Assembly: GCF_003334765.1 (NCBI RefSeq)
Contig: NZ_QOWT01000072.1
DNA length: 2,892 nt
Direction: 5' to 3' (one strand)
Origin: Escherichia coli
Lineage (GTDB): Bacteria; Pseudomonadota; Gammaproteobacteria; Enterobacterales; Enterobacteriaceae
This document shows positions 2,701 through 2,892 of this stretch, one piece after another (the first letter of the stretch is position 1; each line of letters begins with the position of its first letter). The translations under genes and the position numbers were made by a program. The notes under the pieces are model-generated. The model was given only the letters and a program-made list of their open reading frames with translations. It was not told where the DNA came from and did no database searches.

Positions 2701-2744
2701 CCGACCCCGTACTGCTCACGCAGCTTATCCAGCAGTGGCATCAT
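2701..2744 (-). pseudogene. IS3-family transposase OrfB, first 14-15 codons only (truncated by the adjacent IS end at 2700/2701)
   Basis: ATG ATG CCA CTG CTG GAT AAG CTG CGT GAG CAG TAC GGG GTC GG on the minus strand gives [15 protein letters not shown]. The frame is then interrupted by IS2-type terminal-repeat sequence. Confidence 0.65.
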
Positions 2745-2892
2745 TTTTTCCAGAGGCGGTCGAACTCCGCCTTCGCAAAATAAGCGGAAGCCTGGCGAAG
2801 GATATCGTTACTGCGGCGCAGTTCACGATTTTCACGCTCCAGCTCTTTCAGACGCTGACGTTCAGCGGTGGTGAGCCCTCCATCACCGCCCC
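2741..2892 (-). CDS. IS3-family transposase OrfA, C-terminal part (partial; 5' end outside the window)
   Basis: In-frame minus-strand reading to the window edge; stop codon TGA is the complement of 2741-2743. Leucine-zipper-like [13 protein letters not shown] segment typical of OrfA. Confidence 0.7.

Follow-up and report, generated by a model that had tools for sequence, protein, structure and literature searches.

The right edge of the 2,892-nt stretch of DNA analysed here (hereafter the window) carries a real, ordinary and long-dead insertion sequence (IS) scar of an already known kind, in which the beginning of an IS629/IS1203-type element abuts the orphan right end of an IS2. Our preferred reading, which we hold with a probability of about 0.8, is that IS2 inserted into a resident IS629-type element and that the body of the IS2 was afterwards deleted, leaving an inert scar. 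The individual pieces are identified by alignment, the joint between them is flush, the inner joint of the IS2 piece is non-transpositional, orfA of the IS629-type element has decayed, and the scar is conserved among related plasmids. As to the route, we infer a simple insertion as the first event and one later deletion that removed the rest, and simple insertion followed by internal deletion is the most likely course.

The IS629-type fragment and its joint with IS2

The features of the right edge are the following (positions are those of the window):

2555-2624, minus strand: third IS3-family orfA fragment, about 69 bp, codons ~3-25, encoding ...KLYPEEFKVEAVKQVVERGDSV
2624-2700, plus strand: orphan right end of an IS2 sub-variant, IS2 positions 1255-1331, terminal repeat ending ...GGGGCAAATCCA
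2701-2892, minus strand: IS629/IS1203-type element, element positions 421 to 230, cut by the window edge
2701-2744, minus strand: first 15 codons of the IS629-type orfB, with IS2 providing the last base of codon 15 (window 2700)
2701-2787, minus strand: authentic 5' portion of the ALIL frameshift-stimulating pseudoknot, which the joint truncates
2741-2890, minus strand: C-terminal 49 codons and stop codon of the IS629-type orfA, from the translation compared with intact orfA

As the IS1203 reference we took a 1,310-nt full-length copy from a pO157-type plasmid, annotated by PGAP as 'IS3-like element IS1203 family transposase'. By local BLAST, window 2701-2892 matches this copy with 98.4% identity over 192 nt (E 5e-94), and it matches copies labelled IS629 with 99.5% identity. 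Because the entire fragment (element positions 1-421) shows ~96% identity under either label, IS629 and IS1203 cannot be told apart here, and on identity the fragment would be assigned to neither in preference. Position 2892 is the edge of the window and not the end of the element: about 227 bp more lead to the left inverted repeat (TGAACTGCCCGGGAATCC...), which lies outside the window, for a total of about 419 bp in the source-type plasmid.

The orfA part of the fragment gives a weak match to NCBIfam transpos_IS3. In the minus-strand translation orfB is read in the -1 frame relative to orfA and the A-run frameshift site is retained, as in members of the group. The pseudoknot is still recognised by Rfam (RF01497), with 81.1 bits compared to a gathering score of 50 and a reported span of 2787-2689, though IS2 contributes the five bases that close its last stem, its loop has 8 nt compared to 26 nt in the intact copy, and the inner hairpin of the intact copy is gone. 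The RefSeq feature 'AL1L pseudoknot' (locus L001, 10689-10787) has 99 nt compared to 117, and 12 of these (window 2689-2700) are IS2 sequence. The apparent closing stem of the annotated pseudoknot is fortuitous, consisting of a GCCCC that IS2 and IS629 have in common by chance.

Like the IS629/IS1203 elements, which are abundant in E. coli O157:H7 and Shigella, the fragment has a left inverted repeat and an orfA followed by the A-run frameshift site and the beginning of orfB, all in the canonical arrangement, together with the pseudoknot that Rfam recognises. It differs from them in consisting of only the first 421 of 1,310 nt, in having a frameshifted orfA start and in having lost the 3' stem-loop of the pseudoknot. 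There is no DDE catalytic (integrase core) domain in the fragment, as the homology to orfB stops at codon 15. The right inverted repeat of the element is likewise missing, so that no pair of repeats flanked by a target duplication was found, and in its absence a target duplication for the IS629-type element cannot be defined.

On the other side of the joint, window 2624-2700 is 96.1% identical to intact IS2 (E 1e-31; two intact copies served as references) and 91% identical to the IS2 of K-12, again by local BLAST. It belongs to a sub-variant that, at an identity of at least 99%, is found in only 119 records, compared to more than 6,000 records holding IS2. Window 2700 is the terminal base of IS2 (position 1331) and closes the right inverted repeat, the published length of which is 41 bp (PMC3299598), and the piece qualifies in this respect as an IS2 right end. 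No IS2 sequence upstream of position 1255 was found at this site, and with it neither orfA, orfB nor the left inverted repeat of IS2. The piece is thus like IS2 in its terminal 77 nt, right inverted repeat included (96%), and in a terminus that lies exactly at the joint, as in an insertion product; it is unlike IS2 in being confined to 1255-1331, with no transposase genes and no left end, and in having an illegitimate join as its inner edge.

The terminal base of IS2 and position 421 of the IS629-type element meet at 2700/2701 with zero overlap, filler or missing base. Read in the orientation of the IS629-type element, and with the joint marked by a slash, the sequence is ...GTACGGGGTCGG/TGGATTTGCCCC..., compared to ...GGTCGG/ACCGGTATGC in intact IS1203. 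Base-level alignments here agree with the initial annotation, which had described an IS629/IS3-like element cut within orfB where the IS2 terminal repeat ends. The orfB reading frame itself does not stop at the joint, as had been claimed, and continues for 16 more codons into IS2 (ORF 2649-2744); it is the homology that stops.

IS2 transposes by a copy-out/paste-in mechanism, in which the right end serves as donor when the circle is formed, after which the two ends, now abutted, attack the target (PMC3299598). Because it is the ends of the minicircle that attack the target, an IS2 terminus abutting foreign DNA is to be regarded as a transposase product (PMC3299598), and from a flush joint made by the transposase it follows that the IS629-type element was the earlier, passive resident. 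The earlier proposal that one IS had inserted into another holds to this extent, with an IS2 terminus at the cut and the IS629-type element there first, though what is left of the inserting element is a 77-bp orphan end and not a whole IS. Similarly, the joint was said to fix the relative order of events at the right edge; it does place the IS629-type element before IS2, but it orders only two of at least four events there.

That this joint arose by chance or by an illegitimate recombination which happened to hit the IS2 terminus, or that it is an artefact of assembly, is hardly credible. An illegitimate join does exist in the locus, at 2623/2624, but the break at 2700/2701 falls exactly on the terminal base of the inverted repeat and shows no microhomology, and the same joint is seen in dozens of independently assembled complete plasmids as well as in metagenome contigs. 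When a 120-nt probe centred on 2700/2701 was searched against 5,426 complete E. coli genomes, the joint was spanned in only 39, and in 4,559 genomes with one half or the other the matches ended at probe position 60/61.

The fragment is predicted to be non-functional, inert and incapable of transposing, because DDE domain and right end are both missing, the start of its orfA is frameshifted and its pseudoknot is cut. The orfA frameshift lies outside the window and is due to a 1-nt deletion in a T-run that the window lineage has in common with 042. As the start is out of frame in both of the lineages examined, the idea that orfA survives as a functional regulator was dismissed. Across the joint, no promoter-like or terminator-like site was found. 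An outward hybrid promoter formed from the IS2 end was also considered and rejected, as there is no promoter-like site and the bases at the required spacing (CGACCC) are unlike a -10 element.

The inner edge and the missing half of the IS629-type element

The third IS3-family fragment, which borders the IS2 stub on its inner side, resembles IS3-family 'transposase' pseudogenes (83-86%) in ~1,600 genomes, including a copy beside yagB in K-12. At 2623/2624 its orfA is fused to IS2 at position ~1254, at an imperfect 6-nt microhomology, GCT(C/T)AC. Plasmid pO86A1 has the same neighbouring sequence, and there the third IS keeps its ATG, leader and left end and is followed by neither IS2 nor IS629. 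The point of divergence reads AAGCTTAC/TGCTCAT in pO86A1, aagcttac/cacggg in the window and CGCTCAC/CACGGG in IS2. Since the arrangements of the window and pO86A1 diverge inside both elements at a microhomology, the inner edge of the IS2 stub is an illegitimate, non-transpositional join. This join to the third fragment leaves no second end of the inserting IS to look at. A further 35 bp of pO86A1 (TGGCCTGCTATATCCAGACGGCCTTTGTATCTGGT), situated between the third fragment and an inverted paralogue described below, are missing from the window, and these look like a terminal repeat of the IS2 group. A search of NCBIfam returned nothing for the third fragment and nothing for an IS256-type pseudogene further to the left.

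We propose that an IS629/IS1203-type element was already present on an ancestral pAA plasmid when IS2 struck. The IS2 transposase would have linked the 3' end of the right inverted repeat of IS2 to the IS629-type element at 421/422. The catalytic part of orfB would thereby have been severed from orfA and from the opening 15 orfB codons, and the pseudoknot would have been cut. A later deletion, running from IS2 ~1254 to codon 3 of the neighbouring IS3-family orfA, would have removed the body of IS2 and the DNA to its left, most probably with the distal two-thirds of the IS629-type element, and the inert scar left over would have been inherited with the plasmid backbone. Insertion and deletion are favoured by the 77 bp of IS2 that are left, by pO86A1, where the left end of the third IS stands in the place of IS2, and by the crossover within GCTTAC/GCTCAC.

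A simple insertion predicts a 5-bp duplication, GTCGG, with the IS629-type element resuming at position 417 beyond the left end of IS2. The 140-kb plasmid holds seven IS1203-type pieces (1-795, 787-913, a full copy, 787-1282, 597-795, 1-421 and 1-225), none of which begins near 417-425, and orfB is not found to continue contiguously elsewhere on that plasmid, in keeping with the initial annotation. One piece, covering 597-1282, lies on the same strand ~9.1 kb further left and is split by a group II intron. It was the sole candidate for the remainder of orfB and was rejected, since a different IS end (TGAGGTGTACTGG...) bounds it, since it is part of the flank of the fimbrial operon and since the piece is absent from the 042 arrangement, where it does not accompany the module.

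The reciprocal junction (IRL/GTCGG/ACCGG), searched as a chimeric query, had no contiguous match in the 5,426 E. coli genomes or PLSDB; places with apparent full coverage were discarded, as they consist of two pieces 390-475 bp apart, with IS2 beside an intact IS1203. An exact reciprocal 25-mer was found in 0 metagenome contigs compared to 8 for the observed junction, the positive control, and these 8 contigs indicate that the metagenome collection does sample such plasmids. A fuller IS2 at the right junction was likewise found in no plasmid or contig compared. The remainder of orfB and the short target duplication, both of which the initial annotation had suggested seeking, were thus found neither on the 140-kb plasmid nor in the genomes, PLSDB or the metagenome contigs. 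The 5-bp duplication is to be regarded as lost rather than disproved, because the other end of IS2 has been deleted.

Two IS629-type copies of NZ_CP117007.1 (26969-30151 and 71048-74008) carry a group II intron (ltrA) at IS position ~790, and the combination of an IS629-type element with a group II intron recurs in other E. coli genomes (loci L014 and L016).

Against a simple insertion, then, stand the failure to find GTCGG or an IS2 left end next to IS629 417 onward where these were searched, the different IS end that bounds the nearest distal piece (597-1282) and the absence of this piece from the 042 arrangement, and the flush losses beside IS ends in the same locus (the 27-bp difference in 042 and the unrelated flanks of IS3, both described below). 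Such losses make an end-mediated deletion a live alternative, and since neither the orfB remainder nor the duplication was found, simple insertion is indistinguishable from it. In a one-step adjacent deletion, an IS2 situated to the left (or a dimer or junction form of it) would have attacked 421/422 intramolecularly, and no duplication would ever have existed. The order of events would be the same as in our preferred reading, with the IS629-type element first and the IS2 end active. We consider this route unlikely while taking it seriously. It agrees with the lack of a reciprocal junction or duplication in collections where the observed junction is detectable, with the flush differences beside other IS termini in the locus, and with the IR-IR junction deletions that are documented for copy-out/paste-in elements (PMC9333248). 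However, the missing reciprocal junction is equally well explained by the demonstrable later loss of IS2 1-1254, and no sequence feature positively separates the two routes. More generally, where the remainder of an IS is gone, a flush terminus is no proof that the element had simply inserted.

Source plasmid and conservation of the scar

The full window matches E. coli plasmids with up to 99.9% identity, and the best match, p140_MLI109 (NZ_CP117007.1), differs from it by 1 mismatch and 1 gap. The best plasmid matches (99.4-99.9%) bear agg3DCB/agg5A, aggR, aap, aar and aatPABCD, which links the window to the pAA family. In p140_MLI109 and its relatives the window sequence lies between an AAF operon (agg3DCB/agg5A or agg3A) and aggR/aap/aar/aatPABCD, and from these flanks we conclude that the window derives from an enteroaggregative E. 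coli virulence plasmid of the pAA type.

In 31 PLSDB plasmids, among them p55989 and the pAA plasmid of 042 (96.6% identity across window 2400-2892), the patchwork of third IS fragment, 77-nt IS2 stub and IS629 positions 1-421 has an identical architecture, and the same scar is present in strain 042, p55989 and AAF/V plasmids. A similar result was obtained with gut metagenomes, where in 8 of 8 contigs IS2 1255-1331 runs exactly into IS629 421, with identities to the window of 94.4-99.7% over the module. In strain 042 the unit is located between repA and aatP, and not next to a fimbrial operon, which implies that it moved or was kept as a block.

The plasmid of the O104:H4 outbreak, pAA-EA11, does not have the joint, and its homology to the window stops at 2559. 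At this place (locus L013, 6531-7724) an ISKpn26 of the IS5 family, with the non-identical flanks CTAA and CTAG, replaces ~1.46 kb. Gone with this stretch are the third IS fragment, IS2 stub and IS629 1-421 of the patchwork, together with an IS200 fragment and a pseudogene of a Zn/Mn ABC transporter. The loss of the joint in O104:H4 is thus a later, secondary deletion. O104:H4 plasmids were also considered as an alternative state of the joint and dismissed, the seeming end at 2700 being an artefact of BLAST joining pieces with the left IS2 copy.

Like the IS mosaics of pAA, pO157 and Shigella pINV, the locus is a stack of IS remnants between virulence modules, and seven pieces of IS629 type lie on the same plasmid alongside many further partial transposases. 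Compared with the IS mosaics of large virulence plasmids it shows no distinctive feature and is a typical instance. The low novelty initially attributed to it is fully borne out, IS-in-IS scars being routine in Escherichia/Shigella virulence plasmids, and with an evidently inert fragment the biological weight is very small. The scar is nevertheless of modest practical use, as a marker, stable across lineages, of the pAA module with the AggR-regulated isoprenoid/idi genes. Kept in 042, 55989 and the AAF/V plasmids and deleted in O104:H4, it can help to order pAA rearrangements.

The left IS2 remnant and the isoprenoid/idi module

The features at the left edge of the window and within the module are the following:

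1-77, plus strand: last 77 bp of an intact IS3 (annotation), present in only some plasmids, most matches starting at window 78
78-110, plus strand: second IS2 right-end remnant, oriented like 2624-2700 and covering IS2 positions 1298-1331, of which 1 bp is deleted
241-1269: class 1 isoprenoid biosynthesis enzyme gene, intact by annotation
1273-1812: idi, intact by annotation, passing the NCBIfam curated cutoff

The IS2 remnants at 78-110 and 2624-2700 are of one sub-variant and flank the isoprenoid/idi module in direct orientation, with 2 differences over 77 between them and 3 and 7 to the reference IS2s. The left copy comprises 33 nt in the window, 178-186 nt in 55989-like and 042 plasmids, and up to 525 nt in a few others. 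This arrangement could be read as the trace of an IS2-bounded composite transposon that brought the module into the IS629-type element, in which case 2700/2701 would be its outer right junction. We regard such an origin as distinctly improbable. The shared sub-variant would be explained, as would the direct orientation around a module of low GC content (0.33, compared to 0.46-0.58 for the IS pieces of the right edge) and the way in which the whole unit shifts together between the contexts of 042 and of the AAF/III and AAF/V plasmids. However, no plasmid has a complete left copy, the longest being 525 bp, and to the left of this copy there is no rightly oriented distal half of IS629, the piece at locus L022 being in the opposite orientation and that covering 597-1282 being cut by another IS. 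Nor is the inner edge of the right copy an IS2 left end, and pDLI.5a and pO86A1 have module sequence with no IS2 ends, so that the positive support for a composite comes down to the shared sub-variant and orientation.

Two differences between plasmids lie at IS ends near the left remnant. The intact IS3 (locus L001, 6820-8077) has unrelated flanks (...CTGGAT and ATAACAGG...) and no 3-bp target duplication, so that it is associated with a deletion or recombination by which the left IS2 remnant was cut to 33 nt. In the pAA plasmid of 042 (locus L009, ~1238-1264), 27 extra bp (AAGGCCGTCTGGTGATAGCGGATCAAG) follow the left IS2 terminus, at the place of window 110/111. The sequence past these 27 bp abuts IS2 directly in the window lineage, a flush difference that represents either an adjacent deletion or a second insertion. 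At window 100-103 the left remnant reads GGG, compared to GGGG in p140_MLI109 and every other copy, and this is the sole indel with respect to p140_MLI109.

The scar adjoins the AggR-regulated isoprenoid/idi genes, ORF3/pAA003 and ORF4/idi being included in the AggR regulon according to a review (PMC10725161). The idi gene is separated from an inverted paralogue by a frameshifted 3' remnant of an IS256-family transposase (window ~1877-2234), which PGAP labels as a hypothetical protein and which on direct comparison with IS1414 shows 74% nucleotide identity and, over several frames, 60-67% amino-acid identity. The inverted paralogue is diverged (77-80% identity), pairing window 111-224 with 2441-2554 and 241-320 with 2239-2318, and it covers the region upstream of ORF3 and the first 80 coding nt of ORF3. 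Downstream of its right-hand copy is a 50-residue ORF (2315-2467, minus strand) that corresponds to EC042_RS30880/pAA005A, which like ORF3 is AggR-regulated according to a review. The two copies of the inverted paralogue may be paralogous AggR-dependent promoters.
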